In this document: piece by piece, positions 659-25,825 of the stretch
How the letters are laid out: each line of letters begins with the position of its first letter
How positions within the stretch are numbered: the stretch's first letter is position 1
Assembly: GCA_964543385.1 (NCBI GenBank)
Contig: CAZIYE010000001.1
Span: 480,001-512,000 of the forward strand
Origin: an uncultured Candidatus Saccharibacteria bacterium
Lineage (GTDB): Bacteria; Patescibacteriota; UBA1384; XYA2-FULL-43-10; 1-14-0-10-43-13
Length of the DNA stretch: 32,000 nucleotides
Direction: 5' to 3'
Notes under the pieces: model-generated
What the model was told of the DNA's origin: nothing
What the model saw: the letters and a program-made list of their open reading frames with translations, nothing else
Databases searched by the model: none
Program-made: the position numbers and the translations under genes

Positions 659-666
659 CTATATTA

Positions 667-1364: not shown

Positions 1365-1374
1365 GGAGGTGTTA

Positions 1375-1695: not shown

Positions 1696-1716
1696 TTCTA
1701 GCCATAAAGTCTTACA

Positions 1717-1752
1717 AAAAGCCCTTAAGTAGTGATGCTAAGGGGCTTTTTT
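1717..1752 (+). terminator. Rho-independent terminator after pilin paralog 4
   Basis: AAAAGCCCTTA (1717-1727) pairs with TAAGGGGCTTTT (1739-1750) with one bulged G and an 11-nt loop. A T6 run follows (1747-1752). Confidence 0.7.
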
Positions 1753-1815
1753 AGTAGAAGTTGGCAATATAGCTAATGAATAAATAGTCAGGAGTTTTAA
1801 AATAAAAACAAACAT

Positions 1816-2115
1816 ATGATCACTGCCGAAAATATAAAAAATTTGTTTGTCCCAATAATAAATCAGACTGTGACCGCGGAACAGCTTGTAGCTTCAATAG
1901 CCAATATTGCTGCTTCTGTTGCTGGTATAATAGCCTTCTTTTATCTTTTATATGCCGGACTATTATATATAACTTCTGGTAATAATCCAGATCAAGCAAA
2001 AAGAGCCCAGGCAGCTATTGCAAATGTTATTATAGGAATTATTGTTATTGCGCTATCTTATCTTGTGATTAGAGTTATAGGTAATTTTGCAATAACGATA
2101 ATTCAACCTAAATAG
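1816..2115 (+). CDS. TrbC/VirB2-like T4SS pilin-like small membrane protein, paralog 5 (99 aa), separately transcribed
   Basis: Core VAGIIAFFYLLYAGLLYITSGNNPDQAKRAQAAIANVIIGIIVIALSY. It is separated from paralogs 1-4 by the terminator at 1717-1752. Confidence 0.7.
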   Translation: MITAENIKNLFVPIINQTVTAEQLVASIANIAASVAGIIAFFYLLYAGLLYITSGNNPDQAKRAQAAIANVIIGIIVIALSYLVIRVIGNFAITIIQPK

Positions 2116-7377: not shown

Positions 7378-7753
7378 ATATTTGCTATATAAATAAATAG
7401 TTAATATAGATATTAGTAGTAATAAGGGCTGTGGATAGTGTTGATAAGTAAAAAAAAGATTGCCAGGAGACAATAATTAGTAAAAAGTTATGTGGAAAAA
7501 CCTGTACACTTGATTGCCTATAACTTGTTGATAACAAAATATAATTACTAAATACTGGAAAATCTTAAAAATTATAAACAGTTTTATGCAACTTATAAAC
7601 AAAGAAAAACTTAAAATTACCATTAATCCACAGATAAAAATTGTGTAATAAAAAAGATAGTCTGGCAAATGATTAATTAAAAGGTAAATATTATAATAAT
7701 CCACAACTTGTAAGAATCCTGTGGAAAAGATCATTAAATTAGAAAGGATAATA
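7378..7753. other. Putative oriC (dnaA-dnaN intergenic region) with a DnaA-box cluster and AT-rich unwinding region
   Basis: This 376-bp non-coding AT-rich spacer holds five one-mismatch DnaA boxes: TGTGGATAG 7430-7438, TGTGGAAAA 7491-7499, TAATCCACA 7624-7632, TAATCCACA 7697-7705 and TGTGGAAAA 7720-7728. A direct repeat TTATAAACA occurs at 7572-7580 and 7593-7601. Confidence 0.6.
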
Positions 7754-8863: not shown

Positions 8864-8869
8864 CTCTAA

Positions 8870-9913
8870 ATGTTAAAAAATGTTATTTTAGAAAATTTCC
8901 GCAATCATTCTAAATATGAAATTGATTTAGGAAACACAACTATTTTGATAGGTCCAAATGGCATTGGTAAAAGTAATATATTAGAAGCCATTTCGGTTTT
9001 ATCTTCTTGCCGTTCTTTTCGAGAGGAAGATAAAAAAAATCTAGTATCAAACGAAGAGGATTTCTGCCGTATAAGAGGTGATAATCTTGAAGTCTTTATA
9101 CAAAAGAATCCCACGCTTTTGCTCAGAGCTAAAGAGAACGGAATATTTAAAAAAAAGTCATTATTCATAGGACTATTAAGAAGTGTTGTCTTTTCTCCCG
9201 AGACAATGTTATTGGCGACCGGTAGCCCAAGAACGAGAAGGCGATTTTTAGATTTGATGATATCTCAAAGAAATCAGGAATATCTTCGTGCCCTGATTTC
9301 TTACGAGAAAATTAGAGCACAACGCAACTCTCTTCTTCAGAGAATTAAAGAGAGGCAGGCTAGTGATAAAGAATTATCATTTTGGGATGATGGTTTAATT
9401 GCAGAAGGGACCACCATTATTAGGGAGAGAGAAGGGGCTGTTTCTCTTTTGAACAGCCTTATCAGTGATATCTATGGTAATATTTCTGGTGTAAAAGACG
9501 ACTCCTTATCAATTATATATCAGAAAAGTGAAGGATTTGAATATAACATTAGGGAATGTCATCAAAAAGAGATTTGGCAAGGCTGCACGCTTTTTGGTCC
9601 TCATCGTGATGATTTTATTATTAGTTTAAACGGATTGAACATAGCAAACTTTGCTTCGAGAGGTGAAATAAGAAGTGCAGTTCTAGCAATCAAAATTGCT
9701 GAGTTGGAATTTCTGAAGATAGGAAATAATAGCTCCCCAATTTTGCTTCTAGATGATGTATATTCGGAATTTGATGAAGAACGAAGAGAACATCTTAACC
9801 AGATAGTAAAAAACTACCAAAGTGTTGTTACTACAACTGATATGAGTCATTTATCTAAACAATTATTAGACAATGCTAAGATAGTAGAAATGAGTAAAAG
9901 TGGAAAAAATTGA
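8870..9913 (+). CDS. recF: DNA replication and repair protein RecF (347 aa)
   Basis: L..NFRN......GPNGIGKSNILEAI is the Walker A region. The SMC-like signature region follows. LLLDDVYSEFDEERR is the Walker B region. The gene keeps the dnaA-dnaN-recF synteny. Confidence 0.92.
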   Translation: MLKNVILENFRNHSKYEIDLGNTTILIGPNGIGKSNILEAISVLSSCRSFREEDKKNLVSNEEDFCRIRGDNLEVFIQKNPTLLLRAKENGIFKKKSLFIGLLRSVVFSPETMLLATGSPRTRRRFLDLMISQRNQEYLRALISYEKIRAQRNSLLQRIKERQASDKELSFWDDGLIAEGTTIIREREGAVSLLNSLISDIYGNISGVKDDSLSIIYQKSEGFEYNIRECHQKEIWQGCTLFGPHRDDFIISLNGLNIANFASRGEIRSAVLAIKIAELEFLKIGNNSSPILLLDDVYSEFDEERREHLNQIVKNYQSVVTTTDMSHLSKQLLDNAKIVEMSKSGKN

Positions 9914-10187: not shown

Positions 10188-13100
10188 CTAGAATCCGATA
10201 TGGGTCCAGGCAACTGTTTGAGGATTTTGCCATATGCCCATGCGGGTATCACTTTCACATCCGTTACCTTTTTTTGATCCACAAATACCACCGCATGAGA
10301 TTGAGTCGTTTCCTAATCTGGGCTGGCACATATTCACCGTTATCATCCCTGCTTGATCAAAATAATCTACATCTTCTTTTCGGCCTGTCATAATCTGGAT
10401 TGGATATATCGGCTCATTGTCAGTTGTATTATATTTCTCGTAATTTTGGATCCTCATCATATTTTCTATCAATTTTCTTGCCTTATTCTGAGAAGCCTCA
10501 ACCATTTTCTTTTTGAGTAGTTCGTTTATGTTGTTATTTTGCTTGATTTGTCCGCCCCATACTCCCATACCAGTTGTATCATTTATCTTTGGCTGAGGAG
10601 CTTCAATCTTTGGATAATATCCATCAGCAGTACAGTAATAGTAAATTTTTTGACCCAAAAGATATCCTGCCAAAGCTATAACTACTGCTGCTGTCCACCC
10701 CACCGGACCAAGACCAAGCAAAGGCGCGACCACGAGATTATAAACAGCCACAGTTATCAAAGGAGTCAGGGTGCCAGGGATCATTCCCAAGCTATCTTCT
10801 ACTCCCGCGATTTGCTTGTCTAAAAGCTTTTCTACTGCAATTGATACAATTTTGTATACCACTAATGTTTCCGCAGCAGTAAAAGCTTGTTTTGCTGCAT
10901 CTTTGGCTTCTGCTAAGTCAGAGATCTTATTTAATTCCATAAACTCTTTAGCGTTGCTCGACAGTTGAGCAATATCTTTCACTCTTGAAATCTCTTCATA
11001 TATCTTCCAAGACTTATAAAGATCATAACCAAGTTTAAATATTTCAAGAGACTGTCCAGCTTTAAGGCCCAGTGTTTTATCTGCCCAAGTAAAAAGCTTT
11101 GTCGTAATAACAGTAGTTAATACCCCCCCCACAGTTGGCAGAGACATAGTTGAACCATCAGCTACAATTGTATTATGTGTTGTGCTATCACCTTTAACAA
11201 TGTTATCTAGAGTTATTGATTTCAAGCCCCAGTCGCCGGTACCGACACCGACAAGAAGTCCTTTGGCCAAATCTCCACTTATTGGGAAGCCAAACCATTC
11301 CTCGGAATTATCTGAGAGGAAGTTGCTGAAGAAATCAAATCCATTACCACTTGCAAACGTTGTAAAGGCATCTTTATCTCCGGCCACAAAATCCTTAGCA
11401 AATTTTGCTACCTGGATCCATTCGTCGACATTTTTAATTGCCTCAAAATTTTTGCCTAGTAAATGGCCATTTGTAAGGCCTGTTTTAATATATCTGGCAA
11501 GGGCAGCTGCCTTTATCTCAGCATTACCCTGAAGCAGGTCTCTGGCCATGCCTGGGTAAGAGTTCTCGTCTAATTTCCAAAGAGCAATATCGAGCATCTT
11601 GAATTGGAGATTATCCAAAGAAGCTTTTCTTATTGATTTCTGTACCGTTGTTAGTAATTCTCCATTTTTGGGAGTAAAGTTTGCACCGCTTGGTTGATAA
11701 TAAGATTCTGGATTAGAAAGTCTGTCCAATCTGCCTTCTGGGTCTCCATTGTTTTTATTATATTCAGAAACACATTTATTATATTGGTCTCCACTCGCTT
11801 GGTTGGTCGATTTCTGGCAGGCCGCTGGAGCGGCTGCATTATTGCTCACAATGCTTGTATTTAACTCGTCGATCTTACTTTGCAAATTCTCCGGCGAATA
11901 ATTATATTGTTCATCAACTTGATTAGTTACTGATGTTGAAGTCGATGTTTCAGTATAATTTTTCCCCAGAGAATCGATCAAGGCATCACCGAAATTGCCG
12001 CTACCTGTTTTTGGGCAATTATCACCATTACATACCTTTCTTGTTTCCGGATTACTGTAAATACCATTAACATCAACCCAAGCCGCCCTCTGATATGCTT
12101 CGACATCAGGCGCCCCTATTATAGAAGTTTTTATGTCATCATAGGCTATGCGCATCTCTTGTGGAATTGCAGTCTTACACTCGTCGTCTCCATTTGCTGA
12201 GCAGTGACTTTTCCTTATATTGTCTATAGGAGCCATAACATAATTAACTCCTAGAGAAATCGCTGCAATTTGGAAATACTTCATATCCCCACTAACTAGA
12301 TTAGCGATATCTTCCAAAGGCATATCAACGCCGACTCTTATCTCTTTATTATTGTAATTTGCCTTAACGTTATATATAAAATCGTGAATTTTATCACTCA
12401 ATACTTCTTTACCCCATGCGACGATGTCCTCTTTAAACGATCCGTCAACATTTCCCGAAGGATTTTGGGAGATTGCGGCCTTGCAGATATTATATCGATC
12501 GTTGATCTCCTTGCTGAGGGTGGTTCTGGCCTGTTGGACTTCAGTGAGCGCAACCTTTAAATCTTCCTGCCATTTTTTATATTCGCTAGAGTTAATATAA
12601 TCATCCGTTTTTTGCCCATTCTTTGAAACAGGCTTCTGTTTTTCAAGTTCGGCAAGCTTGGCTTCTGCATTATGCAGACTAGTATCAAGCGGCGATACGG
12701 TAGGGTCCGAACTTGCTTCATTTAAACAGTCTTTTGTCTGTCCTGTCGGGCCAAAAGAAACATGAACAACGCGACTATACAATCCCGTAAAAGAAGCAGC
12801 TTTTGAAGAATCAAGCCCAAATTGGTAGTCTATTTTCTGCGCACCAATTTCCATCAAAATAGTTCCTGAGTTCATTGGATCAGCAATAATTCTTTGGAAG
12901 GTTCCCTCAGGCAAGTTTGCTCTTTCATCAAGCTGAAAAGTGAATATCTGATTTAAATGATCATATAACTTATCCCACTTCCCATACCATTCGTCTGTTG
13001 CCGAACCAGTTCGACAAACTTTTTGTCCGTCGGTTTCGATTATTTTCCCCTGGCACTTGAAAATATTATTTAAGTTCTTAACAAGAGTAAGAGCTGTCTC

Positions 13101-16100
13101 TGACTGATTTTGGTCTAAACCAAGGCTTTCTCCTATTTTGCTACCAACAAGTTTCAATCCTGTTTGTTCGCCAACTAGTTGATTGTATTTATCTGGAGTC
13201 ATACTATTCAAGCCAGCCAAGAGGTCATAAGTAGAGTTTGAGCTTATACCAAACTGTTTATCTAAATAATTCAACTGCTGATAAAACTCTATATTCCCAG
13301 AATTATTTTGTTGACTCTTGCCTGCAACAGCCAGTGCAGATTTCAGTCGATCTTTGATTTTTTGATCGATATTGTTAATTGCAGTAAGGGCCGGGCCATT
13401 TATAACCAACGATCCCCTTAAATGATTTTGAATTTGCCGTGCTTTGTATTCGGCGCCAGTATTTTTAATTTTCTTGGCATAGCTATCGCCAAAGATATCT
13501 ACCAGGGATTTCTCATCAAAAATTTCTTCACCATTATCATCAGAGAGGGGAATGTTGAAAGATAGAGCGATATTGATAGCGCGGGACCTATCAAAGGCTT
13601 CACCGAATGTTGCCCCAAAGAATGTTCCTCTTGGAAGATTCAATGATTGCTCAACTTTTGATTGTCCGAAGTTCGATACAAAATCACTAATTTTTTCGCC
13701 TTTTAGCGGGAAATAATCTAGGCCGATTAAGCTTCCAAGTATAGATCCGCCAACTTGATTTAGAGTACAGTTTCTTGATATTTGGTCTTTTGCATTAAAT
13801 ACCGATAGGACGGTCCCGGGCTTTAAATTTAGCTCCTGATCGATATAGTTAGTACTTATTCTGTATAACGATGTAAAATCACCGCCAAGGACATTGTAGA
13901 GGTCGTCGGGCCCAAATAATGATGGGTCAATGTTTAGGCCTGAAGCATCAAAAATTTTATAGTTAATTACTTTTTCTGCAACTGCTCTACCAACTAATAG
14001 TTTGTAATTGGGAACTGGTAAATTTGTGCTGTCTTTGATAAACAATTTACTTAGAATCTTTTTATCAATATTATTTTTATTGCCTATAGCATCGATAAGT
14101 TGTTGGGTTTTTTCTTTATTATTTCCAAATGCATATTGTACATTTTTATCAGTGATAAAAGACAACAGGTTATTTCTAATATCAGAGATTTGTGACTTAT
14201 CACTCGCACTGTCTGCTAATCTTTGGGCTAATTCCTCCAATATATTGCCATATCTTTGGTCTTTGTTAATCAGTGAATATCGCTGGGCTTCTTCGGGGCT
14301 TTTGAAACAATGACGACCCTTCTTGTCGTAATAACAGAAGGAGTTATTCTCTAGGCTGGTTTCATTTATCGAGAATCCATCCTGTTTAGTATAAGAAACA
14401 GGGCATTGATTGCTATCAGATGCGGTATCAGCATAAGGGTTTACAAATACATAGTCTGGGTTTAATACATCGTCGTTATATTGATCAAGCTCGCTAGGTA
14501 AGATCTTGCCGCTTACTAATTTTGTATAAATATCAAGAACATTCTTGCTTATCTTTAGATTGTTCTCGAGCAAATTTTGTTCATCGCTAGACAGATTTAC
14601 AGAGTAAAGATTCTTGTCCTTAGTAAATAGTGACTTCGTATCACCGTCTTCTAGGCCAAGAAGATTATCAATAGACAGGGCCTCTGAAAGTGCTTTTTGC
14701 CATGCCAAAACACCTCCAGATTTTAGTGCTTCGTAGTTTCCGCTACCAAGCCCTAATCGCATCATCAAGTCGCTTTCAGCAGATTTTAATGCATCGTTAA
14801 ATCCTCTATCCTTAATATTTTGAACGATACTATCAGTATTAAAACTGTTTGCATTTGTCTTGCTGCCAAATTGTTCAATTATTTTGTCTTGTTTTTGCTT
14901 CCAATTGTCTCTTGCTGAGGCAACCAATAAATCGTAATCAGGCCAGTTTTCAGCCTGCATCTGGCTCAAAACGTTTAATAATTTATTGCTACTATTAATA
15001 CCCGTTATATCGGTAGGTAATTCCCCCAGCGGCGATTTGGCTTTATTCAATTTACTTGCCAGGTAACTGTTTACTGCTTCATCAATCTTAGTTTTGTCTG
15101 CATACTTTAATAATTCTGAGGCATTTGTAGCAAAATCAGCCATTGTAGAGACCGAATTCTTTTCCTGAAAATAGAATGGTGGCATCGAAAAGACTTCCTC
15201 AATCTTAGCTTGGCCGATAGACTTGAAGAACGCGTCACTTCCCCCCATTCCTTTTTTCTCGAAATTCTCAACTAAATATAAGAGAGAGTTACTTGGTAAA
15301 CCAAGCTTTGATTCTGCCATATTGGCACCAAATGAGATAAAAAGATCAGTCGGCGATACATTACCTGCCAAGAACCCAAATATTAGAGAGGAGGCCTTAA
15401 ACGGCGAGATATTATTATTTCCTCCTCCGCTATCATTGCTAGTCAGATCCATACTATTTATTTGAGAAAGTTTAAGGGAGTCCGAAGTTGGTATCTCTCG
15501 GCCGGATATGATTTCAGAAGATATCCTAAGGAGTTCGTTGGCATTAAAGATAATAGAATTCAGTTCATCAATCTTGTTATTTGCCTCTGCCTTGGCGGTG
15601 GTGAAGTTCTTAATTGAATCTAGCTGGGTGACTATAGAGTCAATCTGGCTTGTTGCAGAACTCATTTTCTCCCACGTATTTTGTATTTTTATTGTATTTG
15701 CATCACTAGATTCAAAAACATTTTTGAGATTACTAATTAAATCATTAATTTCAGTATATGTATTCTCGAAACCTGAATCCTTGCTTGCAAAGATTTTCCA
15801 ATCACCCTTAATATCAGCCAATAATTTTTGTGCCTGATTCAATCTTGATGTATAAAATGCGATAGTACTGTTGCTAATTCTTAATTCTGGATTCGTGTTT
15901 AATAAATCTATTTTGGTTTTGTCTTCTTTGTTGATTAATTTGTTTGCAACACCTGTATATAAAATTTGTGAACCGATCCTCTTGAAGACGGGGCTATTAT
16001 TAGCTGTAGAACAACCAAAGATCCTTTGCAGGTCAAGTTTCTCGAGCCCAGCTAGCATGGACTTTTCTTCTGTCACAATAAAATCATCAGTTCGTGTTTC

Positions 16101-18608
16101 CACATTTTGGTCAGAGTATACTAGTGAATACTCAACTTTTTGTGTTATTGGAATAGCTGGTAGAGCGTTAGAAATCTTAGAACTGCCTTGAAAAATAATT
16201 TGTCCCTCTGGTGTAATTTCATAGTCTAGAGTTTTGTTTAGCTTTGGGGCACTACATTCGTTGCTTGATTTTTGAATGTTTCCACGAAGCCACTGTCGGA
16301 AAATAAATCTGCCAAATTCATCTGGATTAATATCTTGTGTTACGCCCCCTTCGATAACTCGGATTTTTTTATAACTCTGGTCTGAGCTTCCCTTTGGTGC
16401 TACGCTATCATCTGCTAGGAGCCGTGCCAGAGTGTAGATGCCGATAGTTGATAGGCTCTCATGATCACCACTTAGCGCTCCCTCCCAAGTGTCTCTAATA
16501 TCCGGTTGTTTCTCTGTTGGGCCTGGTAATTGATAAGCACCATTATTCATTGAAAAATATTTTAAACCATAGAGTGTGTCATCAAGTCTCTTCTTGCCTA
16601 CCATCGCAGCAAAATCTGCAGAATTGATTCTTTCTAGAATAAAATTATTTGCCGTGCCTGCACCAAGATTTAGGTCATTATCAATCAATCCAGGATTGTT
16701 TTTAATCAAAGTCGACCTCAATGAGCCGATTTTATCCGAGAGGTTGCCGAAGGTTACTGCTTCTTTCGGCCAAGAGTTGCCTGCTAGATTCAAATCTTTT
16801 TCGATAACTTTTGCGCCTACATAGTTAGCGAAAACATCATTTTTTGAAGTAACAAAGGCATCTAAATCACCAGCGTTCAGATTCATCTCATGTTCTAACT
16901 TTCTCTGGCCAATCTTGATGAGAGTTGATGGCAGGTCACTACCTGATAGCGAGCCAAAAGGTATTCCTAGCTTCTTCTCAATTGCTGATCGGCCGATAGT
17001 GTATTTTATTTTCTCAATGTCTGAAAGATTCTGACCAATAAATATTTCTCTTGGCAACCCTAAATAATCAGCAACATAAGTACTTCCTAGCTTCTTGAGG
17101 GTATCTTCTACATTAAATCCGGCAAAGTTCAGACTCTTCGATTCTAAGACATTACCTAACAGGGATTTTCCTAATATCTGAATTATATCTTCAAAATTAG
17201 CCTTGCTGAGATCTCCTTCATAAGAAGAGATGTCGCTATTCAAGTTGCCCAGCAAACCATTGACTGATTCGGAGGCAGCCGATTTTAGAAGACTCATCAT
17301 ATCAAATGGATCTCTCTCTCCGGATGCATTCCAGCCGTCGGTAGTTTGCCAAGCTAATTTAATTGGTTGTATCGGTTGTTTATATTTCTTTGTGCCTCCA
17401 GTGTTCTTTTTAACAACCTTCGTACACCTGATATCATCGATCTCTGATATATCTATAGCTTGCCCTTCAGCATGAGAGGACAGATTGCGTTCCTCTACAA
17501 AAGAGTCCTCCTTTTCGGTAAGGCTAGTTAGGTAGGCCTCATATTGAGCACCATTCTTATCTTCAATTTCAAGATCTGGGGTCGTTCCTTTTTGTTTGCC
17601 ACAGTCAGCGGCAGTCATTTCATCGCTACAACCTTTAGACACAGACTTTTGGCTATTAGCCAGAGTTTGTACCACAGAATCAGATTCTGTTGATTTATCC
17701 TGCCTTTGCAGAATGCGATTAACTCTTATTCTCCAGTGGCCAGCCCCACCCTGATTTTTTGGAGTAATTAGGTAGACCAAGGTTTTAAGAACCCTTACAT
17801 CAATATTCAGCGAGTCTATAGATTCTTTTAGTTTTTCTGCTAAATATGGCTTATCGTGGTTAACATAATTAATAATTCTTTCGCGCCCGATTCCTGTCAC
17901 ACAAACCAAAGTGTCTAAATCAACAGAAGGAACTTTTCCTTTTTTTAAATTATCTTCTTCATCTGCCCAAATATCTCTTATTTTATTTTCGCCAACATTC
18001 TTTCTTGCAGCTTCGGCAAGACGATTAAAAAGTTGCAGATTGTCGAATCTCTCAGTAGAGGTTAGGTTATCTCTTCCGATCTTCAAATATTTTAAATATT
18101 CAATTGGCGTCTTGAAATCTTTGTTAGATTGCAAATTTTTATCTACGATCTCTGTTTGATCCTTAGGCAAGTTTTTATATAGGGCATCAAAATCTTCATC
18201 AAAATTTGGGAGTATATTGGAAAGACAGGAAAGTGATTTCAAGGCCGCTAAATCACTTTGTTTCATAATTATTTTCTGTTCTGATGAATTTGTTAACAGA
18301 TCATCAAAAGTAATAAGGCTATCTTGATCGGAGAACTGAGCCATTGTTTCTAATAATTTCTTATATGCCAAAGAGTCGCTCAGTGTTTTTTTTACCTTAC
18401 ACTGCTGGTTATCTTTAGTTGGTATATAAGAATACTTTTTCTGATCAGCAACTTTTATTAGCAAAGGAATCTCTGGATCATAATCAATCTCTCCATCGTT
18501 GTCATCGGCTGCTTTTGCATTCAAGGCAAAAGCATATCCTGTGGATCCAAATGCGATTGATATTATCAATAAGTAAATAACAGTCTGTTTTAAAATATAT
18601 TTCAACAT
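10188..18608 (-). CDS. Giant secreted, membrane-anchored protein (about 2806 aa); last gene of the T4SS-like operon
   Basis: An uninterrupted 8.4-kb ORF. My preferred start is ATG 18608 (TAATG overlap with the upstream stop), giving the signal peptide MLKYILKQTVIYLLIISIAFGSTGYAFALNAKA/ADD. The ORF track's start is at 18641. A LAS-like SSHAEGQAID motif lies near 17450-17480. A degenerate L(G/N)LP-type motif is repeated many times. A hydrophobic hairpin (LITVAVYNLVVAPLLGLGPVGWTAAVVIALAGYLLG, about 10650-10790) precedes a Cys-containing C-terminal domain of about 150 aa. Confidence 0.85.
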   Translation of the reverse strand: MLKYILKQTVIYLLIISIAFGSTGYAFALNAKAADDNDGEIDYDPEIPLLIKVADQKKYSYIPTKDNQQCKVKKTLSDSLAYKKLLETMAQFSDQDSLITFDDLLTNSSEQKIIMKQSDLAALKSLSCLSNILPNFDEDFDALYKNLPKDQTEIVDKNLQSNKDFKTPIEYLKYLKIGRDNLTSTERFDNLQLFNRLAEAARKNVGENKIRDIWADEEDNLKKGKVPSVDLDTLVCVTGIGRERIINYVNHDKPYLAEKLKESIDSLNIDVRVLKTLVYLITPKNQGGAGHWRIRVNRILQRQDKSTESDSVVQTLANSQKSVSKGCSDEMTAADCGKQKGTTPDLEIEDKNGAQYEAYLTSLTEKEDSFVEERNLSSHAEGQAIDISEIDDIRCTKVVKKNTGGTKKYKQPIQPIKLAWQTTDGWNASGERDPFDMMSLLKSAASESVNGLLGNLNSDISSYEGDLSKANFEDIIQILGKSLLGNVLESKSLNFAGFNVEDTLKKLGSTYVADYLGLPREIFIGQNLSDIEKIKYTIGRSAIEKKLGIPFGSLSGSDLPSTLIKIGQRKLEHEMNLNAGDLDAFVTSKNDVFANYVGAKVIEKDLNLAGNSWPKEAVTFGNLSDKIGSLRSTLIKNNPGLIDNDLNLGAGTANNFILERINSADFAAMVGKKRLDDTLYGLKYFSMNNGAYQLPGPTEKQPDIRDTWEGALSGDHESLSTIGIYTLARLLADDSVAPKGSSDQSYKKIRVIEGGVTQDINPDEFGRFIFRQWLRGNIQKSSNECSAPKLNKTLDYEITPEGQIIFQGSSKISNALPAIPITQKVEYSLVYSDQNVETRTDDFIVTEEKSMLAGLEKLDLQRIFGCSTANNSPVFKRIGSQILYTGVANKLINKEDKTKIDLLNTNPELRISNSTIAFYTSRLNQAQKLLADIKGDWKIFASKDSGFENTYTEINDLISNLKNVFESSDANTIKIQNTWEKMSSATSQIDSIVTQLDSIKNFTTAKAEANNKIDELNSIIFNANELLRISSEIISGREIPTSDSLKLSQINSMDLTSNDSGGGNNNISPFKASSLIFGFLAGNVSPTDLFISFGANMAESKLGLPSNSLLYLVENFEKKGMGGSDAFFKSIGQAKIEEVFSMPPFYFQEKNSVSTMADFATNASELLKYADKTKIDEAVNSYLASKLNKAKSPLGELPTDITGINSSNKLLNVLSQMQAENWPDYDLLVASARDNWKQKQDKIIEQFGSKTNANSFNTDSIVQNIKDRGFNDALKSAESDLMMRLGLGSGNYEALKSGGVLAWQKALSEALSIDNLLGLEDGDTKSLFTKDKNLYSVNLSSDEQNLLENNLKISKNVLDIYTKLVSGKILPSELDQYNDDVLNPDYVFVNPYADTASDSNQCPVSYTKQDGFSINETSLENNSFCYYDKKGRHCFKSPEEAQRYSLINKDQRYGNILEELAQRLADSASDKSQISDIRNNLLSFITDKNVQYAFGNNKEKTQQLIDAIGNKNNIDKKILSKLFIKDSTNLPVPNYKLLVGRAVAEKVINYKIFDASGLNIDPSLFGPDDLYNVLGGDFTSLYRISTNYIDQELNLKPGTVLSVFNAKDQISRNCTLNQVGGSILGSLIGLDYFPLKGEKISDFVSNFGQSKVEQSLNLPRGTFFGATFGEAFDRSRAINIALSFNIPLSDDNGEEIFDEKSLVDIFGDSYAKKIKNTGAEYKARQIQNHLRGSLVINGPALTAINNIDQKIKDRLKSALAVAGKSQQNNSGNIEFYQQLNYLDKQFGISSNSTYDLLAGLNSMTPDKYNQLVGEQTGLKLVGSKIGESLGLDQNQSETALTLVKNLNNIFKCQGKIIETDGQKVCRTGSATDEWYGKWDKLYDHLNQIFTFQLDERANLPEGTFQRIIADPMNSGTILMEIGAQKIDYQFGLDSSKAASFTGLYSRVVHVSFGPTGQTKDCLNEASSDPTVSPLDTSLHNAEAKLAELEKQKPVSKNGQKTDDYINSSEYKKWQEDLKVALTEVQQARTTLSKEINDRYNICKAAISQNPSGNVDGSFKEDIVAWGKEVLSDKIHDFIYNVKANYNNKEIRVGVDMPLEDIANLVSGDMKYFQIAAISLGVNYVMAPIDNIRKSHCSANGDDECKTAIPQEMRIAYDDIKTSIIGAPDVEAYQRAAWVDVNGIYSNPETRKVCNGDNCPKTGSGNFGDALIDSLGKNYTETSTSTSVTNQVDEQYNYSPENLQSKIDELNTSIVSNNAAAPAACQKSTNQASGDQYNKCVSEYNKNNGDPEGRLDRLSNPESYYQPSGANFTPKNGELLTTVQKSIRKASLDNLQFKMLDIALWKLDENSYPGMARDLLQGNAEIKAAALARYIKTGLTNGHLLGKNFEAIKNVDEWIQVAKFAKDFVAGDKDAFTTFASGNGFDFFSNFLSDNSEEWFGFPISGDLAKGLLVGVGTGDWGLKSITLDNIVKGDSTTHNTIVADGSTMSLPTVGGVLTTVITTKLFTWADKTLGLKAGQSLEIFKLGYDLYKSWKIYEEISRVKDIAQLSSNAKEFMELNKISDLAEAKDAAKQAFTAAETLVVYKIVSIAVEKLLDKQIAGVEDSLGMIPGTLTPLITVAVYNLVVAPLLGLGPVGWTAAVVIALAGYLLGQKIYYYCTADGYYPKIEAPQPKINDTTGMGVWGGQIKQNNNINELLKKKMVEASQNKARKLIENMMRIQNYEKYNTTDNEPIYPIQIMTGRKEDVDYFDQAGMITVNMCQPRLGNDSISCGGICGSKKGNGCESDTRMGIWQNPQTVAWTHIGF

Positions 18609-20326
18609 TATTGTCCAAGAACTTTCTTCATATTGTTCCACAAATATTCGCCCCAGGATTTTCCTTCAGTCTGCTCATATTCAATCTTATCGAGAAGTGT
18701 TGTGGTGACGGGGACACCACAATAACTAAGCTCGAGATGCAATTGAGAATAGTCTGATATTGTAGCCACCTTACCTATAGTCTTGTCCCGAGTGACGCCG
18801 GTGCCTTCTCCGACATTCTTATCCAAGTCAACATGGGCGTATAGAATTTCATAATCACCATTTTTAATAACAATCTTCTTATGACCTGTTCCATCGTCTG
18901 AAATATTAGTGACCTGGCCGTCGAACATTGGGTAGACCAAAGTATCCTTATTAGTATAGAGGTCAACTGCATCAGCTTTACCCTGACCATAGTACATGTA
19001 TGTACTATGTCCGCTTTCATTGCTAGGCATTTCTTTTCGTAAGGGAGTGCCATAATGGAGCTCCCAATTAAACCCAGATATATTTTCTAATGGAAGTCTG
19101 GTCTTTGCTTGCATAATAGGAGATTGCTGGTCAGCTGATTCCAAAATAGATTTTACTGAAGTTATAATCTCTCGTCCAAGAACAGGGTCGTTATTTACTA
19201 AATACTGGTCGATTTTGGATGAAGTATCAGCTATTTTGTTTTTAGTTTCTTGATTTGATGATGATACATCTGTTCCGGTGGATGCTTCCAATTGCGATAG
19301 TTGCTTTTGAATATCGGAAAATGTTTGGTTATTTAATTTAGCTTTTGCCTCTTTATCACCTGATGCCATAATTGTTTTCTGAATCGCAGCGGAATCTGTA
19401 ACAGGATCCGCAGGCTTATTAAATGTTGATCCTGCTTTTCCAGTCCCAGCATCTCCTATAATGGCAGACATAATTGCAATGCCCGCTACAATGATGACAA
19501 TTGCCAAAATAATCCACGGTAAATATGGCAAGATTGCTTTCCATAGGGCAGCTAGGGCTTCTTTGGAAAACTTTTTCTTTAATTTATCAATTATCTTTTT
19601 ACGTGCTTCCTTATTTAACCAATCCAGCCAAGAAGACTTCTGCTGGTTTTGTGCTTGATCATCTTGGGATTTTTTTTGCTCAGCTGCGTCAGAATCAGCT
19701 TTCTCTTGGTCTAATCTTTCTTGATCAGGATTATTTCCATCGTTTTCCTCATTACCATCACTCTCTTCCGATTGTCGTGCTCCCATAACCTGGATCGTCA
19801 TGGAGCCAGGAGTACCGCTCTTGCTACCAATGGCAGTAATATATAAAACTCCATTCTCACACTCGGGGCTAGTTTTGATAATAAATGACTTACTTGAACC
19901 ATCCTCAGTCTGGTCACTCACTCCATGGAATACCCCGCTCACCCCACCTTCGGCTTCCCAGAAATATCCTTCATCCTCGGTAAAATCTATAGTTCCGCCT
20001 GACAAAGTAACACTCTGATTCGGGCCGACCGACGATGGACCGTCAATAATAACTACTGGTTGGATAGGAGATACAAGGGCTCCTCTCGTTACTGCAGGCG
20101 ATCCGCTTACGGCTTTTTGGCGCGCCTCACGAAGTTTTGAATTGAAGAGGTTTAGCAATTCTTGTGCCTTCTTCTTGTTTTTTATTTTTTTTAGCTGCTC
20201 ACTAAAATAGCGGCTGGCTTGTGCACTATTCCATGCGCCGCTTTTTACTTTATTTATATAAGAAGGTATTGATCTTTCTACAAACCTAATGAATTTTGCT
20301 TCTTTGTCGTCCACAAACCCCTCCAT
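18608..20326 (-). CDS. Single-pass membrane protein with C-terminal M23/LytM-like peptidase domain (about 572 aa)
   Basis: AGGTG lies 5 nt before ATG 20326 (the ORF track uses GTG 20332). A basic stretch is followed by a TM helix (LWKAILPYLPWIILAIVIIVAGIAIMSAIIG). The C-terminus VYPMFDGQVTNIS...IVIKNGDYEILYAHVD...GVTRDKTIGKV...SQLHLELSY resembles the M23 fold and its HxH-type motif. The first metal-binding motif is non-canonical. Confidence 0.6.
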   Translation of the reverse strand: MEGFVDDKEAKFIRFVERSIPSYINKVKSGAWNSAQASRYFSEQLKKIKNKKKAQELLNLFNSKLREARQKAVSGSPAVTRGALVSPIQPVVIIDGPSSVGPNQSVTLSGGTIDFTEDEGYFWEAEGGVSGVFHGVSDQTEDGSSKSFIIKTSPECENGVLYITAIGSKSGTPGSMTIQVMGARQSEESDGNEENDGNNPDQERLDQEKADSDAAEQKKSQDDQAQNQQKSSWLDWLNKEARKKIIDKLKKKFSKEALAALWKAILPYLPWIILAIVIIVAGIAIMSAIIGDAGTGKAGSTFNKPADPVTDSAAIQKTIMASGDKEAKAKLNNQTFSDIQKQLSQLEASTGTDVSSSNQETKNKIADTSSKIDQYLVNNDPVLGREIITSVKSILESADQQSPIMQAKTRLPLENISGFNWELHYGTPLRKEMPSNESGHSTYMYYGQGKADAVDLYTNKDTLVYPMFDGQVTNISDDGTGHKKIVIKNGDYEILYAHVDLDKNVGEGTGVTRDKTIGKVATISDYSQLHLELSYCGVPVTTTLLDKIEYEQTEGKSWGEYLWNNMKKVLGQ

Positions 20327-20425
20327 TATCACACCTAAACTTTGTCTATACCGCCAAAAGACCGGTCATCATATGTCTAACTGGGATTCAAGCACTTTCT
20401 AAATTATAATAACAGTATTATGCTG

Positions 20426-21688
20426 CTATTCGACATTTAATGCTCTGATCGCCTCATTATCTTGGTAAATAATGATGTTGTTATCATCGGTCAGCACTAG
20501 ATTGTGAATAAAAGTATCCCCAAGATTCTTGATAACAAAACCATTCTGCTGTCTTTTTTTTGTGTCATATTTGAATATTGATTCCTCTTTTGTATCGGGG
20601 TCATAAGTAGCCACAATAATATTTTCAGAATCCTTGCTCCAAGTAGTCTTTTTCAGTTCGGCTCTGATGTCCAGCGATTTTTTATTAGTGCCATCTTTAT
20701 CCATAATAGAAAGGATTGATTCTACTGGCCCTTCTTGGCTTTTAGAATATGTTGAATAGAGTATTTTATTGCCATCAGGGGAGAAATTAGCATCAAGCTG
20801 GTTTCCTATGTCGGCAATCTCTGATATTTTTCGTGAATAGGAATTAAATAAATAAATCTTATTCTTTTCGGTATCCTCATTGCGGGGAATTATTAAAAGC
20901 CATTCGGAGTCAGGAGACCAACGTAAAAGGGGATTATCAATTCCATAATCATTAAAATTGAGCACTCGCGTAATTTCTTTATTTGCTGCGCCAGTAAAGA
21001 TTAATGACTTCTCGCCATCTTCCGGTGCATAGTAGTATGCGATCTTAGAATTGTCTGGAGCCCAAGCGATGCTACCAATATTATTACCCCACGAATCTTC
21101 ATTTTGATTGATAAAGTCATATTTTTTCAAATCAAAAAAGGAAATGATTTCAGGCTTACGTAGCAAAGCTAGATCTTTTGTTGGAGACCAGATAATTTCA
21201 TCTATGTCTGATATTACAGGATTTGTAACGGCTCTTTCTTCGGCCAACTTTACTCTTTGTCCGACATCTGTTTTTGTGCGTACCCTATATATTGTTGTCC
21301 CATTTTGGTAATAAATATCATTAAAATCATTACCCTTATTTAAAAACTTTCCGCCGATAGAAATAGTCAGAGGATCGGGGGTTCTATCTAGGCTGATAGT
21401 AATTTTCTTAGGCATACCCCTTTTAAAATTCATTTCCTGATTTATGCCGATATATCCTCTTGCTTCAATTCTGATCATATGTAGGCCTGGAGAGATAAAA
21501 CGACGTATTAGACCAGAGTCGGGAACAGCAAAAGGCTTGCCGTCGATTGAAAATGAAGAATTAGTGGGCTCTAGCTGAATATTCATAAATGAATGAGTAA
21601 TAAACCATAGGAGCACAATCAAAGCCAGAGTAATTGCTGATATTACTAGAAATATTGAACGTGTTAATTTTTTAATTTCTTTATGCAT
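20426..21688 (-). CDS. Membrane-anchored TolB-like beta-propeller protein with PEGA-like N-domain (420 aa)
   Basis: N-terminal anchor SIFLVISAITLALIVLLWF. PEGA-like segment FSIDGKPF...PGLHMIRIEARGY. PD40/WD40-like blades recur: WSPTKDLALL, WAPDNSKIAYYY, WSPDSEWLLI, FSPDGNKILYS and WSKDSENIIVA. Confidence 0.65.
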   Translation of the reverse strand: MHKEIKKLTRSIFLVISAITLALIVLLWFITHSFMNIQLEPTNSSFSIDGKPFAVPDSGLIRRFISPGLHMIRIEARGYIGINQEMNFKRGMPKKITISLDRTPDPLTISIGGKFLNKGNDFNDIYYQNGTTIYRVRTKTDVGQRVKLAEERAVTNPVISDIDEIIWSPTKDLALLRKPEIISFFDLKKYDFINQNEDSWGNNIGSIAWAPDNSKIAYYYAPEDGEKSLIFTGAANKEITRVLNFNDYGIDNPLLRWSPDSEWLLIIPRNEDTEKNKIYLFNSYSRKISEIADIGNQLDANFSPDGNKILYSTYSKSQEGPVESILSIMDKDGTNKKSLDIRAELKKTTWSKDSENIIVATYDPDTKEESIFKYDTKKRQQNGFVIKNLGDTFIHNLVLTDDNNIIIYQDNEAIRALNVE

Positions 21689-21728
21689 TTTTATCTATTT
21701 TTATTTTATAATAAATTGAATATTTTTG

Positions 21729-23006
21729 TTAGTATTGCTCAATTCTTAAGTGAAAGTGGGCCTTGTGCTTATCCCATGCTACCATGCGCCCTGGCTTTTT
21801 ATTTTCTATAGCATAGCTATTTACTGCCGCTATAACCTCTGAGTCTTCGTAACCAATCCTTGTGGCGCCACAATTGATCAGAAGTTTACCCAGGTCTATC
21901 ATCATTTGTCTATTTGCAGCATCATAATTATTATTAGCTATAGCTGGTCTCTCCCTAACATTCATCATGTGGCCAGGTAGTAATATATCAGCGTCGATTC
22001 CTTTGGCGTGGGAGGCATGACCGTCAGCCTTTTTGCATTGCCCGCTCAATTCACCGATAACAAGTTTTGGTCTGCCGGCTTCAGCCCACTGTTTGCTAAC
22101 AGATACAAGAATATTAATTAATGACGGCTTGCCCCAATGTTCTTCTTTATCGCCGCTCTTTGTGTAATACTTTTCAAGTGCTGGAACTTCTACCCAACCG
22201 CAGGATGAGCCCTTATAACCAAGGTTAAGGTTTGTTTTGCAAAGAAGAGAATTTGGAATGAGTTTAGTAGTTACCGATGCAAGTGAGAGACAGCCATTAT
22301 TAAGTCCTTGAAAATTTTTCCATGTGCGCAATGCATATCCTGGTCCATTTGGGTTTGGGTAAGGTGCTCCCCAATTCCACCCAGGGTTTTTCGTATTCTC
22401 TGGTGCCCTATCTAGAGGAAAACCCATTTTTTTCCACTCCCTTAATCTGGCGGGGCCTCTGTTATAAAGCATTCCCGCAGCCTTCACAGTTTTTTCGTCA
22501 GCCCCGTCTGCTTTCAAACCATTATCTTCGAGATGGTATTTTATATATGCAGCTGCGGCTAATGCAGAATCAGCGAAATCGTCTGGATTACCTGTGGGCT
22601 TATCTGAATATTTTTTATAAATATTACCGGCCCACTTACCGTCAAAATCCTCAATCTGAAAAGGTCCCTTTGCATTTCCGCCTCGTGCCCAAATTCCATT
22701 AGCACCAGCAGAAGCCTTAATAGAATCACCGTGCTCTGCCATGAATATAGCTCCAAGCAAGGCAGGTTGTATCCCAACCTTGTTAGCAGCTTCCTCAATG
22801 GCCGATTGATACCCGCTAGGAGCTGCATCCCAGGACGTACAGCGTATATTGCCAAATAAATTAACAGGGTTTACGGTTTCCTTTATTCTTCCGCTCCACA
22901 GAGATGTTCCAGCTGCAGTAAAAGCGAGTGAAAGTACTGCGGCCAAACCTAAAACAGCCAGTATTATACCGGCCTGAGTAAAACCCTTGCTGTTTCTGTG
23001 AAACAT
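21729..23006 (-). CDS. Bifunctional cell-wall hydrolase: SLT-type lytic transglycosylase + LAS (MepA-like) metallo-endopeptidase (VirB1/CwlT-like role)
   Basis: N-terminal signal anchor. SLT-like motifs are AIFMAEHG (catalytic Glu candidate), GPFQI and AAAAYIKYHL...LYNRGP. C-terminal LAS motifs are GHASHAKGIDADILL (H-x(3-6)-D) and HKAHFHLRI (H-x-H), as in the MepA family. The start is ATG 23006 or GTG 23009. Confidence 0.7.
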   Translation of the reverse strand: MFHRNSKGFTQAGIILAVLGLAAVLSLAFTAAGTSLWSGRIKETVNPVNLFGNIRCTSWDAAPSGYQSAIEEAANKVGIQPALLGAIFMAEHGDSIKASAGANGIWARGGNAKGPFQIEDFDGKWAGNIYKKYSDKPTGNPDDFADSALAAAAYIKYHLEDNGLKADGADEKTVKAAGMLYNRGPARLREWKKMGFPLDRAPENTKNPGWNWGAPYPNPNGPGYALRTWKNFQGLNNGCLSLASVTTKLIPNSLLCKTNLNLGYKGSSCGWVEVPALEKYYTKSGDKEEHWGKPSLINILVSVSKQWAEAGRPKLVIGELSGQCKKADGHASHAKGIDADILLPGHMMNVRERPAIANNNYDAANRQMMIDLGKLLINCGATRIGYEDSEVIAAVNSYAIENKKPGRMVAWDKHKAHFHLRIEQY

Positions 23007-23010
23007 CACA

Positions 23011-24864
23011 TTATTGTCCTAATAATTGCTTTGGATCAGTGGTAATTATCTGATCTTCTGTATATGAAGCAACAGCCTTGAATGCAACATGATTTAATCC
23101 CGCAAAGAACAGTCCTTCCCCGACGTCGGACTCAAGAAGAAGGTATTTCTCTCCTTCGGTTAAATTAAAAGTTTCAGCTACGATATCTATTGATGCCGTT
23201 GATTGTTTCATAAGTATTTGCATTGATGAGTTGGCCACTACTGCTTTACCAAACCTACTGCCCAAGAAATCCTCAACATCTTGGCTTATTATTGTAAGGC
23301 CAAGATAATATTTTCTGGCTCTTTTTGCCAATCCATGAAGAAATTTTGCAGAATCCTCATATTGCATCATCCACCATGCTTCATCTACTATCATCAAGCG
23401 CTGCTTCATATTCATGCGGACTTTGGTCCAAATATAATCAAGAACGGTGTAGATTGCTATTGGTCTCAGCTGTTCTTCGAGATCCCTAACGGAGAAGACC
23501 ACAAAGCCGGGGTTTAATTCGAAATTCGTTGGCTGATTGTATAGATTTGCAAATGAACCCTCTACATATTTTGATAATCTTGCTCGAAGTGACCCAGTTC
23601 CTTCTAGATTAGATAAAATATTATAGAAATCTTGAAGGAGGGGAGGTTCATTTTTCTGACTTGCTGGATCGACAGTGATGTCTTTTATTGCGTATGTTTC
23701 ATAAAGAGCTTTGTCTATAATAGAATCTTCTTCAGGGCTGAGTCCGCCCGCCATCAAATTAATAAGTCCATGTAGGGAAGAAATATTTGAACGGAGAACA
23801 TCTTCTCCTGCCTCATTTGGATTGAGGGGTAGATCGAAAGGGTTGATTCTTTTGTCGGAGTTTAATGATATTTCCAGATAGCTGCCACCCACTGAATCGC
23901 AAAGAGTCTTATATTCATTCTCCGGGTCTATTACAATGACATCTGTCCCCAGCATCAAATATCGGAGCGCTTCTAGTTTCACAAAGTAAGATTTACCAGA
24001 ACCAGATTTTGCCAATACTATAGAATTAGCATTTTCCAATGAAAATCGGTCAAATATAATTAATGAGTTATTGTGTCGATTTATTCCGTACAATATCCCA
24101 TCATCCTGAGTCAATTCACTTGATGTAAAAGGAAATGTTGAAGATAGAGAAGCGGTATCGAGATTTCTAAGAACACTAATCCTATCAGACATGATCGGCA
24201 GCGTGGCAGTAAAGCCTTGCTCCATTTGGAATATTGATTGTTTTGTATAGATTAGCATTCCGCCAAGGGTTGATTCTACTTGGTCAGTTATCGTTTTTAG
24301 TTCCTCCTCTGATTTTGCGTACAGTGTGAAGTAGAGTCCAAACTGAAAAAGTCGAACCTCTCCTCTTTGAAGGACATCTCTTAATGATTCGACGTCGCCT
24401 AGCGCAGTTTCAAGCTCTGGATCCCTAGGTGAGCCTTTTTCTGCTTGAATTTGCATTGTGGATTCAAGTTTTCCTACCTGAGTTTTGAGCTCAGTCATCA
24501 CATCTTTAGATTCTAATGGGTGGATGTATAGCCCTATGTCCATTGTGATGTCATAGTTTATGATTGGAGATAGCCAGTTTGTTTCTAAAAATCGGGGGTA
24601 AGTAAAGACGAATAATGTTTTAGTAAATTGAGTGCCAACTTGGAGACTGTTTGGGCTCACAATAAATGAGGCTGGTGCAATAATATCTCCAATAGCCACA
24701 GTCCCTTTTCGGAACTGTTCTTGGAGTTTTTTGCTCTGATCCCAAAAACCGTTTTCCTTAAGCTTTTTTGATTCGACTTCCCGTTGCTGTAGGTTGGCCT
24801 GAGCCATTGATCTTGGGTCTGGTGTTTGATTTTGTCCTGCTAAAACAGGGTTATTATTGTCCAT
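23011..24864 (-). CDS. virB4: VirB4/TrbE/PrgJ-family T4SS ATPase (about 617 aa)
   Basis: N-domain pattern TKTLFVFTYPRFLETNWLSPII. Walker A is LAKSGSGKS and Walker B is RLMIVDEAW. The downstream region is ...LGLTIISQDVEDF. I prefer ATG 24864 (MDNNNPV...), which overlaps the upstream stop by 11 nt, over the TTG at 24930 in the ORF track. Confidence 0.88.
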   Translation of the reverse strand: MDNNNPVLAGQNQTPDPRSMAQANLQQREVESKKLKENGFWDQSKKLQEQFRKGTVAIGDIIAPASFIVSPNSLQVGTQFTKTLFVFTYPRFLETNWLSPIINYDITMDIGLYIHPLESKDVMTELKTQVGKLESTMQIQAEKGSPRDPELETALGDVESLRDVLQRGEVRLFQFGLYFTLYAKSEEELKTITDQVESTLGGMLIYTKQSIFQMEQGFTATLPIMSDRISVLRNLDTASLSSTFPFTSSELTQDDGILYGINRHNNSLIIFDRFSLENANSIVLAKSGSGKSYFVKLEALRYLMLGTDVIVIDPENEYKTLCDSVGGSYLEISLNSDKRINPFDLPLNPNEAGEDVLRSNISSLHGLINLMAGGLSPEEDSIIDKALYETYAIKDITVDPASQKNEPPLLQDFYNILSNLEGTGSLRARLSKYVEGSFANLYNQPTNFELNPGFVVFSVRDLEEQLRPIAIYTVLDYIWTKVRMNMKQRLMIVDEAWWMMQYEDSAKFLHGLAKRARKYYLGLTIISQDVEDFLGSRFGKAVVANSSMQILMKQSTASIDIVAETFNLTEGEKYLLLESDVGEGLFFAGLNHVAFKAVASYTEDQIITTDPKQLLGQ

Positions 24865-25825
24865 TATTTTGTATGGTTGTATTAATTGGTTGAGCAGGGG
24901 CTGATTGTATAGGCATATTATTTGTATCAACAGCCGATGGTATCTGTTGGATTTGCTGTATCAATTGGTCAGTTGTATTTGATTGTATAGTATTGTTGCC
25001 AACGACTGGTTGTGTTCCTTGCGGGGTTTGTGCTGTCTTATCGGCTTCTTGGCGTCGTCGTGAGGCGATTTGCCTTTGTTGTTCCTCTACCATGTCAGCG
25101 TTATCAATTGATTCTTGAGAATCAACTTGTTCTACCGGTTGTTGTGTATTCTCAGAAATCTCATTCCTCGCAATTATTACTGGCGCTGACAATGTCTCCG
25201 CATCGCTAACCCTTTCCTTCGCCGACTCATCAGGATTATATATCTGGTAGAAGAGCTCTATTATTTGTTCAGTAGAAAGCTGGAAGCAATGTAAGCCCAT
25301 GCTAGCCAAGCCCGAGGCAACAATACTCGCTCTTTGCCCTAGTTGGTCAGTAGATGATTTGAACTCCGTATCAGTAACTTTGATATGGTCAAACGTTTGT
25401 GTCTTGGCAAACAGACTATCAAAGACATTTAATTTTTTTATATTAATTGGATCGTAGGGGACGACTAGATAAAAGGTCTTTTTCATAATATTGGCTATTG
25501 AGATCAGTTTTGACACAAAATCAACATAATCACCAATTTGCATTTTTATAAGTTCATTGATGCTTTTTTCAGAGGCCCTTTTTATTTTTTCAAGATAGGG
25601 ATTCAAGTCTAATCGTCTCGATCTAATAACAATTTCAACAGGGAAGTGTAGAGAATTAAGAAAACTCTGATATTGAAATATAAGTGAGTTTTGTTCTTGT
25701 TCACTTTTCAATGCAAAATTTACGGCAGATACTTCTAAAATCATGCGGTAACTACCATCTTTCAATATCATTATACCGTCTTTGATACCGGCTATAGGAA
25801 CAGATTGTTGGGTCGATAATGCCAT
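24854..25825 (-). CDS. VirB4 N-terminal-domain-like protein lacking an NTPase domain, with a Q/T/N-rich disordered tail (323 aa)
   Basis: SVPIAGIKDGIMILKDGSYRMILEVSAVNFALKSEQEQNSLIFQYQSFLNSLHFPVEIVIRSRRLDLNPYL resembles the N-terminus of Firmicutes-type VirB4 proteins as I remember them. No Walker motifs are present. The C-terminal roughly 110 aa are Q/T/N-rich and low in complexity. Confidence 0.45.
   Translation of the reverse strand: MALSTQQSVPIAGIKDGIMILKDGSYRMILEVSAVNFALKSEQEQNSLIFQYQSFLNSLHFPVEIVIRSRRLDLNPYLEKIKRASEKSINELIKMQIGDYVDFVSKLISIANIMKKTFYLVVPYDPINIKKLNVFDSLFAKTQTFDHIKVTDTEFKSSTDQLGQRASIVASGLASMGLHCFQLSTEQIIELFYQIYNPDESAKERVSDAETLSAPVIIARNEISENTQQPVEQVDSQESIDNADMVEEQQRQIASRRRQEADKTAQTPQGTQPVVGNNTIQSNTTDQLIQQIQQIPSAVDTNNMPIQSAPAQPINTTIQNNGQ

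Follow-up and report, generated by a model that had tools for sequence, protein, structure and literature searches.

The type IV secretion system (T4SS) of the epibiotic bacterium Candidatus Southlakia epibionticum is encoded by an origin-proximal gene cluster (SEML1_0001-0019) that is essential by transposon sequencing, and downstream of virB4 it carries two lysozyme-like domains, a Cys peptidase, a LAS domain, and a PEGA protein, all of them essential (PMC10633639). Quinonero-Coronel et al. 2025 (PMC12102498) likewise noted homologues of peptidases and of lysozyme downstream of virB4, both essential. The T4SS class nearest to the present one is that of plasmid pCF10, whose PrgK protein unites LytM, SLT, and CHAP domains in a single polypeptide; of these, the SLT domain alone is active in vitro (PMC11323569). 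The LytM domain of PrgK is degenerate, and the side domains are regulatory (Sun et al. 2024, PMC11323569). In a monoderm T4SS operon, pIP501 encodes TraG, a membrane-associated hydrolase with two domains, SLT and CHAP (PMC12102498, PMC12857230). Here we describe a related locus in a 32,000-nucleotide stretch of DNA (the window) from an uncultured, ultrasmall Candidatus Saccharibacteria bacterium with a 0.9-Mb genome (98.7% complete), whose relatives are metagenome-assembled genomes labeled Patescibacteria, Berkelbacteria, or Saccharibacteria. The genes that follow virB4 in the window are best explained as the extracytoplasmic wall module of a chromosomal, origin-proximal Patescibacteria T4SS, a relative of the monoderm MPF-FATA systems.

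A single densely packed operon on the minus strand runs from the gene of a 692-aa protein to that of a 2817-aa giant. Its first part encodes the 692-aa protein, a VirB6-like protein of 874 aa, a 272-aa protein, PrgI (VirB3-like), a TrsD-like protein of 323 aa, and VirB4; proteins of 426, 420, 574, and 2817 aa follow, and the start of the 426-aa gene abuts the VirB4 stop. The features that mark an origin-proximal Patescibacteria T4SS (PrgI, a TrsD-like gene, VirB4, a VirB6-like gene, and pilins beside dnaA-dnaN-recF) are all present. The assignment of the module to a T4SS follows from the adjacency to dnaA-dnaN-recF and the T4SS gene set, which match the layout of SEML1_0001-0019. The window open reading frames (ORFs) scanned include neither a relaxase nor a coupling protein. 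The module consists of the following features, with structural evidence from AlphaFold2 (AF2) and with TM denoting a transmembrane helix or segment:

23011..24930, minus strand: VirB4 ATPase, 639 aa, the anchor gene of the module (Pfam TraG P-loop, 101 bits)
21729..23009, minus strand: putative bifunctional peptidoglycan hydrolase, 426 aa, the VirB1/TraG/PrgK equivalent (Pfam, PDB alignment, profiles)
22275..22847, minus strand: GH23 (SLT or goose-lysozyme-like) domain of the 426-aa protein, aa 55-245, predicted to cleave glycan (Pfam SLT, 19.9 bits; 3gxk profile match)
21732..22187, minus strand: short MepA-like LAS (Peptidase_M74) domain of the 426-aa protein, aa 275-426 (Pfam M74, 43.4 bits; alignment to 1tzp)
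20426..21688, minus strand: bitopic 420-aa protein with a TM helix, a PEGA-like beta-sandwich, and a predicted seven-bladed beta-propeller (AF2, Foldseek, weak PD40 match)
18608..20332, minus strand: bitopic 574-aa protein with an N-terminal region of ~265 aa, a TM segment at ~aa 268-296, a linker, and a C-terminal divergent M23/LytM domain
18707..18973, minus strand: M23/LytM domain of the 574-aa protein, aa 454-542 (Pfam, 34.9 bits; residue table of 24 orthologues; PDB profile alignment)
10188..18641, minus strand: giant 2817-aa surface protein, the final gene of the module (synteny in all complete relatives)
17190..17810, minus strand: conserved N-terminal domain of the giant, aa 278-484 (GGAGHW, SAHxxGQAxDI, DDIRCT, KLAWQT)

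Like the cluster SEML1_0004-0019 of Candidatus Southlakia epibionticum ML1 (Wang et al. 2023), the operon adjoins dnaA-dnaN-recF on the opposite strand, proceeds from PrgI, a TrsD-like gene, and VirB4 to wall hydrolases of several chemistries and a PEGA protein, and is accompanied by multiple T4SS pilin genes with no relaxase in the cluster. The two loci differ in domain content. S. epibionticum has a Hedgehog/DD-peptidase LAS domain, whereas the glycosidase of the window is a GH23 domain fused to a MepA-like LAS domain; unlike in S. epibionticum, the PEGA-like domain of the window is fused to a seven-bladed propeller, and a separate bitopic M23/LytM protein is encoded; and the window giant (2817 aa) has a LAS-like motif near its N terminus, whereas SEML1_0007 (1113 aa) has a C-terminal LAS domain. 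The window also resembles PrgK of Enterococcus faecalis pCF10 (VirB1-like, MPF-FATA) in its LytM, SLT, and peptidase domains, in the degeneracy of the LytM domain, in a presumed cytoplasmic N-terminal region followed by a TM segment, and in the monoderm T4SS setting. PrgK is, however, one polypeptide, while the window set is spread over two genes with the propeller gene between them, and a metallo LAS domain stands in place of CHAP; PDB searches with the window proteins returned no sequence match to PrgK. As in TraG and in CwlT of ICEBs1, which we take to be a muramidase joined to NlpC/P60, a glycan-cleaving enzyme is paired with a peptide-cleaving one, but the second domain of TraG and CwlT is a Cys peptidase and that of the window a MepA-like Zn endopeptidase. 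The predicted N-terminal membrane anchor of the 426-aa protein is shared with TraG and PrgK. The preliminary description of this DNA had proposed that its hydrolase chemistries exceed what a T4SS needs. That argument does not stand, as PrgK alone carries LytM, SLT, and CHAP and the published S. epibionticum locus carries lysozyme-like, Cys peptidase, and LAS domains.

The sequence comparisons establish which domains are present, the state of their key residues, their synteny and distribution, and the turnover of domains. As the best reading we favor a module that would open the producer's own wall and scaffold the machine within it, with a probability of roughly 0.55. Tethered to the producer's membrane, the 426-aa protein would serve as the VirB1-type enzyme of the system, its GH23 domain cutting glycan strands and its MepA-like LAS domain cutting peptide cross-links. 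The two domains would together open a local hole in the wall for the VirB6/VirB3/VirB4 channel, the pilins, and the giant surface protein. The TM-PEGA-propeller protein is probably a class-wide scaffold that would hold these parts in the wall zone.

The combination of an SLT-like and a MepA-like LAS domain in one protein, proposed earlier from motifs, was confirmed in the 426-aa protein. Its C-terminal domain scores as Pfam Peptidase_M74 (E 4e-11, 43.4 bits; cut-off, 25), and a phmmer search against the PDB matches Escherichia coli MepA (1tzp), with GHASHAKGIDAD of the 426-aa protein aligned to GHASHQTGLDVD of MepA and HKAHFHLRI aligned to HRAHMHVRL. All five His/Asp residues of the LAS motif H-x2-H-x6-D (GHASHAKGIDAD) and H-x-H (HFH) are retained and align residue for residue with the HxxH-x6-D and HxH of MepA. 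The same residues are conserved in homologues P0002-P0004, and genus-level homologues score as M74 too. The LAS core is shortened (~150 aa) and covers only profile positions 16-114 of 240 plus the HxH strand, short of a full-length MepA domain. MepA is a soluble periplasmic enzyme; the window domain is shorter, fused to GH23, and apparently membrane-anchored.

The N-terminal domain of the 426-aa protein scores just under the gathering cut-off for Pfam SLT (PF01464; 19.9 versus 21.3 bits). We assign it to GH23 despite this score because its orthologues pass the cut-off (24-49 bits; 25-41% identical to the window's domain) and because a profile of 18 N-domains matches the goose-type lysozyme 3gxk at E 0.004, in an alignment that runs over the Glu-Ser, GLMQ, and AYNxG stretches of the lysozyme. 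Glu92 (AEHG) is invariant in the 18 sequences, and GPFQ (GPFQI in the window) and YNxG (LYNRGP in the window) are conserved; the Glu in the aligned Glu-Ser stretch of 3gxk is presumably the catalytic residue of the lysozyme. A hydrophobic segment of ~22 residues near the N terminus (about aa 13-36), conserved in homologues, is the predicted membrane anchor. The 426-aa protein is probably an active enzyme, and its main substrate would be the producer's own wall. The SLT-M74 fusion is rare, with ten relatives among 5.8 billion proteins, five of which carry M74. A search for related loci in genome contigs with the hydrolase alignment gave only 3, and the wider comparison of loci drew on other genome searches and a metagenome scan. 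In a same-genus genome (G150, locus L005:8265-9624), the orthologue is split into two overlapping ORFs of 186 and 331 aa, owing to a frameshift or an assembly error.

The 420-aa protein between the two wall-directed proteins had been described as a TolB-like PD40 propeller with a PEGA-like domain and regarded as no standard T4SS component. The AF2 model, built from an alignment of 26 orthologues, is of high quality (predicted local distance difference test [pLDDT], 89; predicted template modeling score [pTM], 0.82) and places a TM helix at residues 2-31, a beta-sandwich at 33-99, and 28 strands, forming seven blades, at 107-418. In Foldseek, the best matches are Lp49, TolB, and WD40 proteins, with TM-scores of 0.37-0.52 (0.37-0.40 for TolB) and 14-16% identity, and Pfam gives a weak PD40 match. 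On this model the protein is a propeller of the PD40/WD40 kind, and its arrangement of an N-terminal beta domain followed by a propeller recalls Leptospira Lp49. TolB itself is a six-bladed propeller with an N-terminal alpha/beta domain that acts in a Tol-Pal context. Membership in the TolB family is ruled out by the seven blades, the missing TolB N-domain, and the T4SS gene neighbors, and the protein is TolB-like in fold class only. The sandwich has no Pfam PEGA match at E<=0.1; its PEGA label is taken from the sequence pattern and from the S. epibionticum annotation.

The distribution of the propeller protein contradicts the notion of a stray component. Its profile matches 118 of the 151 genomes sampled from the class, and a by-eye comparison of 18 genomes from other families placed the match on the VirB4 contig, <=5 kb downstream of VirB4, in 16 of them. 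In one family only the PEGA part matches, which fits the 211-aa PEGA protein SEML1_0005. Across loci outside the window's genus the propeller protein is 34-57% identical.

The C-terminal M23/LytM domain reported earlier in the third protein (572 aa there, 574 aa here) was recovered as a domain, but two of its canonical His residues are missing. Its Pfam Peptidase_M23 score is 34.9 bits against a cut-off of 28.7, compared with 105-117 bits for the canonical M23 genes of the same genome in a six-frame search. A profile of the domain family matches ShyA, DipM, SpoIIQ, LytM, and lysostaphin in the PDB, among which DipM and SpoIIQ are non-catalytic; a phmmer search of the PDB with the whole 574-aa protein gave no match, and the domain profile was required. 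Residue states were read through the family hidden Markov model alignment. The window domain has AxxxD for HxxxD and QxH for HxH, so that the five positions read A, D, H, Q, and H, with the Asp, the YAH His, and the last His retained. In the 24 distinct orthologues, the first His of HxxxD is absent throughout (Cys in 11, Ala in 6, Gly in 6, and Ser in 1), and 11 of them retain the first His of HxH. Catalytic residues are preserved across orthologues in the case of the GH23 Glu and lost in the case of the first M23 His. The LytM domain is divergent and probably non-catalytic, as the residue states indicate and as in PrgK. A basic stretch precedes the single TM of the 574-aa protein, which suggests that the N-terminal ~265 aa are cytoplasmic, as in PrgK, and the whole would resemble the N-terminal half of PrgK (cytoplasmic domain, TM, LytM). 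Rather than cutting peptidoglycan, the LytM domain most likely binds it, or serves to regulate or position the hydrolase.

The M23 slot alternates between domain types. In about nine distinct loci (L009, L012, L015, L019, L002, L029, L033, L037, and L041), the C terminus of the gene before the giant instead bears a ~150-aa domain with SxHxxGxG/AVD and DHxHIGF, a LAS signature, which Pfam does not recognize. EnvC and NlpD are activators of Amidase_3 enzymes, and we considered a comparable amidase-activator role for the LytM domain. This was rejected, as the type in the third slot (M23 versus LAS-like) shows no obvious pairing with the type in the first (compared by eye). In a more distant group of loci (L049:5584-9353), a YkuD L,D-transpeptidase with PG_binding_4 and a canonical M23 (55 bits) precede the homologue of the giant.

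The giant was previously noted to carry a LAS-like motif with no obvious third ligand nearby. The motif itself is firmly conserved: SSHAEGQAID lies at 17451-17480, and across 26 orthologues its S, H, G, A, and D show no or almost no variation. It sits in a block of 207 residues that is 85% identical to the window's within the genus and 45-53% identical in the other genera of the family, with GGAGHW, SAHxxGQAxDI, DDIRCT, and KLAWQT invariant or nearly so. No third His occurs downstream of SSHAEGQAID, and KLAWQT stands where E-x-W-H would be. A LAS fold found no support. The PDB profile search with the N-terminal domain of the giant gave only a chance match to a ribosomal protein, and Pfam at E<=10 on 26 members of the domain gave just faint matches to LAS-clan families. 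The AF2 model from the 26-sequence alignment was unusable (pLDDT, 54; pTM, 0.24; motif region, <50). With hhalign, the domain reached 3% to Pfam-verified M15/VanY, 1.8% to the M23 set, and 54% to the LAS-like set of the third slot, in a comparison of low power whose positive control (third-slot LAS-like versus M15) reached only 34%. The LAS reading of the giant may be taken as a motif-level lead.

Synteny was compared over 20 fetched loci and 33 metagenome loci, amounting to ~35 distinct ones. In these the genes run VirB4, hydrolase, propeller, M23 slot, giant, except for a few loci in which propeller and hydrolase are swapped. VirB4 was found in 23 of 23 family genomes searched, and of the 151 class genomes 141 contain a match at E<=1e-150; its identity across distinct loci of the family that lie outside the window's genus is 71-86% (91% in L025). 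The median identity to the window falls from 79% in VirB4 to 46% in the propeller and to 32% in each of the hydrolase N-domain, the protein of the M23 slot, and the giant. On the suggested check of whether orthologous operons keep all three genes, the gene order is kept, and the second hydrolase domain and the M23 slot vary. What stays constant in the post-VirB4 protein is the TM anchor and the glycosidase N-domain (GH23; Glucosaminidase in two loci). The second domain is M74 solely in the window's own genus and elsewhere is Amidase_3 (with or without NlpC/P60), Amidase_2, CHAP, NlpC/P60, VanY, M15_4, C39_2, or M23, which makes nine types in total. Mapped on the VirB4 tree of 34 loci, the second-domain label changes 17-19 times, where the minimum is 8 and the shuffled mean 22. 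Operons whose VirB4 proteins are 93-96% identical encode hydrolases without alignable similarity.

The same genome encodes a second, conjugative-type T4SS on another contig (C3:33000-52000, locus L058), with a 596-aa VirB4 (41% identical), a protein with a pilin domain, and a coupling protein of 1230 aa that is joined to a Replic_Relax relaxase. Directly downstream of its VirB4 lies a single canonical M23 gene of 207 aa. With only this one small M23 in the second T4SS, the wall module of the origin-proximal system is the richer one. The earlier count of several peptidoglycan-hydrolase chemistries stands insofar as the module has more wall-directed domains than the second T4SS, but its M23 domain is probably inactive and the LAS assignment of the giant is unproven. 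Beside the second T4SS, genes for DUF2326 and ABC-3C CTD10 proteins have a defense-like character.

Three observations weigh against the proposed opening of the producer's own wall by the 426-aa enzyme with a non-catalytic LytM partner. The SLT score of the window falls below the Pfam cut-off; an upstream His in GH[SG]TY (19 of 24 orthologues) or a Cys could rebuild the M23 metal site, in which case the domain may be active; and near-random turnover of the second domain would follow more readily from an external substrate that varies than from the wall of the producer itself. The last point leads to the principal alternative, in which the hydrolases act mainly on the peptidoglycan of a host bacterium at the epibiont-host contact, admitting the pilus, channel, or giant to the host membrane, with the second domain exchanged to fit host wall chemistry or to evade host inhibitors. 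We consider this unlikely overall, yet it deserves attention because the second domain is replaced rapidly and non-homologously: nine second domains (M74, Amidase_3, Amidase_2, CHAP, NlpC/P60, VanY, M15_4, C39_2, and M23) occupy one operon position, unrelated hydrolases stand beside VirB4 pairs of 93-96% identity, and the domain label is scattered over the VirB4 tree almost as if by chance. Extracellular parts also evolve far faster than VirB4 (median identity, 32-46% versus 79%), S. epibionticum needs its T4SS to grow as an epibiont, and the conjugative-type T4SS of the same genome uses one small M23. However, the 426-aa protein carries a TM-like anchor in place of a cleavable signal, which implies a short reach; monoderm conjugation systems mix hydrolase modules too, with no host-wall role shown; any of the nine types could open any peptidoglycan, and the turnover may be neutral; and the lineage has no known host.

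An opening of the producer's own wall presupposes catalysis, and all three wall-directed domains could instead be non-catalytic binding modules that anchor the machine to peptidoglycan. Two canonical His residues are missing from the M23 domain, only one of three PrgK domains is active in vitro, and the window SLT score is under the cut-off, all of which would agree with binding. The GH23 Glu and the five MepA His/Asp residues are nevertheless strictly conserved in the genus, the Glu even family-wide, and the replacement domains of relatives score well above Pfam cut-offs as enzymes, so that we regard pure binding as very improbable. That these are housekeeping hydrolases of wall growth or division merely adjoining a T4SS is hardly credible, common as M23, SLT, and LAS enzymes are in growth and division, given the fixed order and tight or overlapping spacing after VirB4 in ~35 loci, the propeller gene <=5 kb downstream of VirB4 in 16 of 18 other-family genomes (by eye), a non-homologous enzyme replacement uncharacteristic of core division genes, and better-scoring canonical M23 and SLT genes elsewhere in the genome (one M23 belonging to the second T4SS), which may serve housekeeping.

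The literature searched contains no description of a GH23-M74 fusion, of a class-wide T4SS-linked PEGA-propeller protein, or of quantified cassette-like turnover. New here are the family-wide fixed gene order, the propeller in 118 of 151 genomes of the class, and the nine second-domain types. The wall module is a fixed block of four genes in which the propeller is conserved, the LytM protein is degenerate, and the second domain of the hydrolase is rapidly replaced, and its genes are concrete, testable candidates for the wall crossing of the machine and possibly for host range. More speculatively, the hydrolase slot after virB4 might be a fast-swapping cassette that fits the machine to host wall chemistry or inhibitors, with the propeller as a previously undescribed core T4SS subunit that positions the enzymes. 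If so, the hydrolases would determine the host range of epibiotic Patescibacteria. A large part of all uncultured bacteria belongs to the Patescibacteria, and theirs is, to our knowledge, the only T4SS known to be essential for the growth of its owner.

Other genes in the window flank the giant gene at its distal side:

5992-9913, plus strand: dnaA, dnaN, and recF, directly adjoining the giant gene
4011-4892, minus strand: YidC
2118-3764, minus strand: PilB-like T2SSE ATPase
248-2115, plus strand: five tandem small T4SS pilin genes (each Pfam T4SS_pilin, 31-41 bits)

In two of the related loci, small genes are inserted between the wall-module genes, encoding a PD-(D/E)XK nuclease and a 23S rRNA intervening-sequence protein (L016:11577-11954 and L015:3425-3787); these insertions are possibly selfish.

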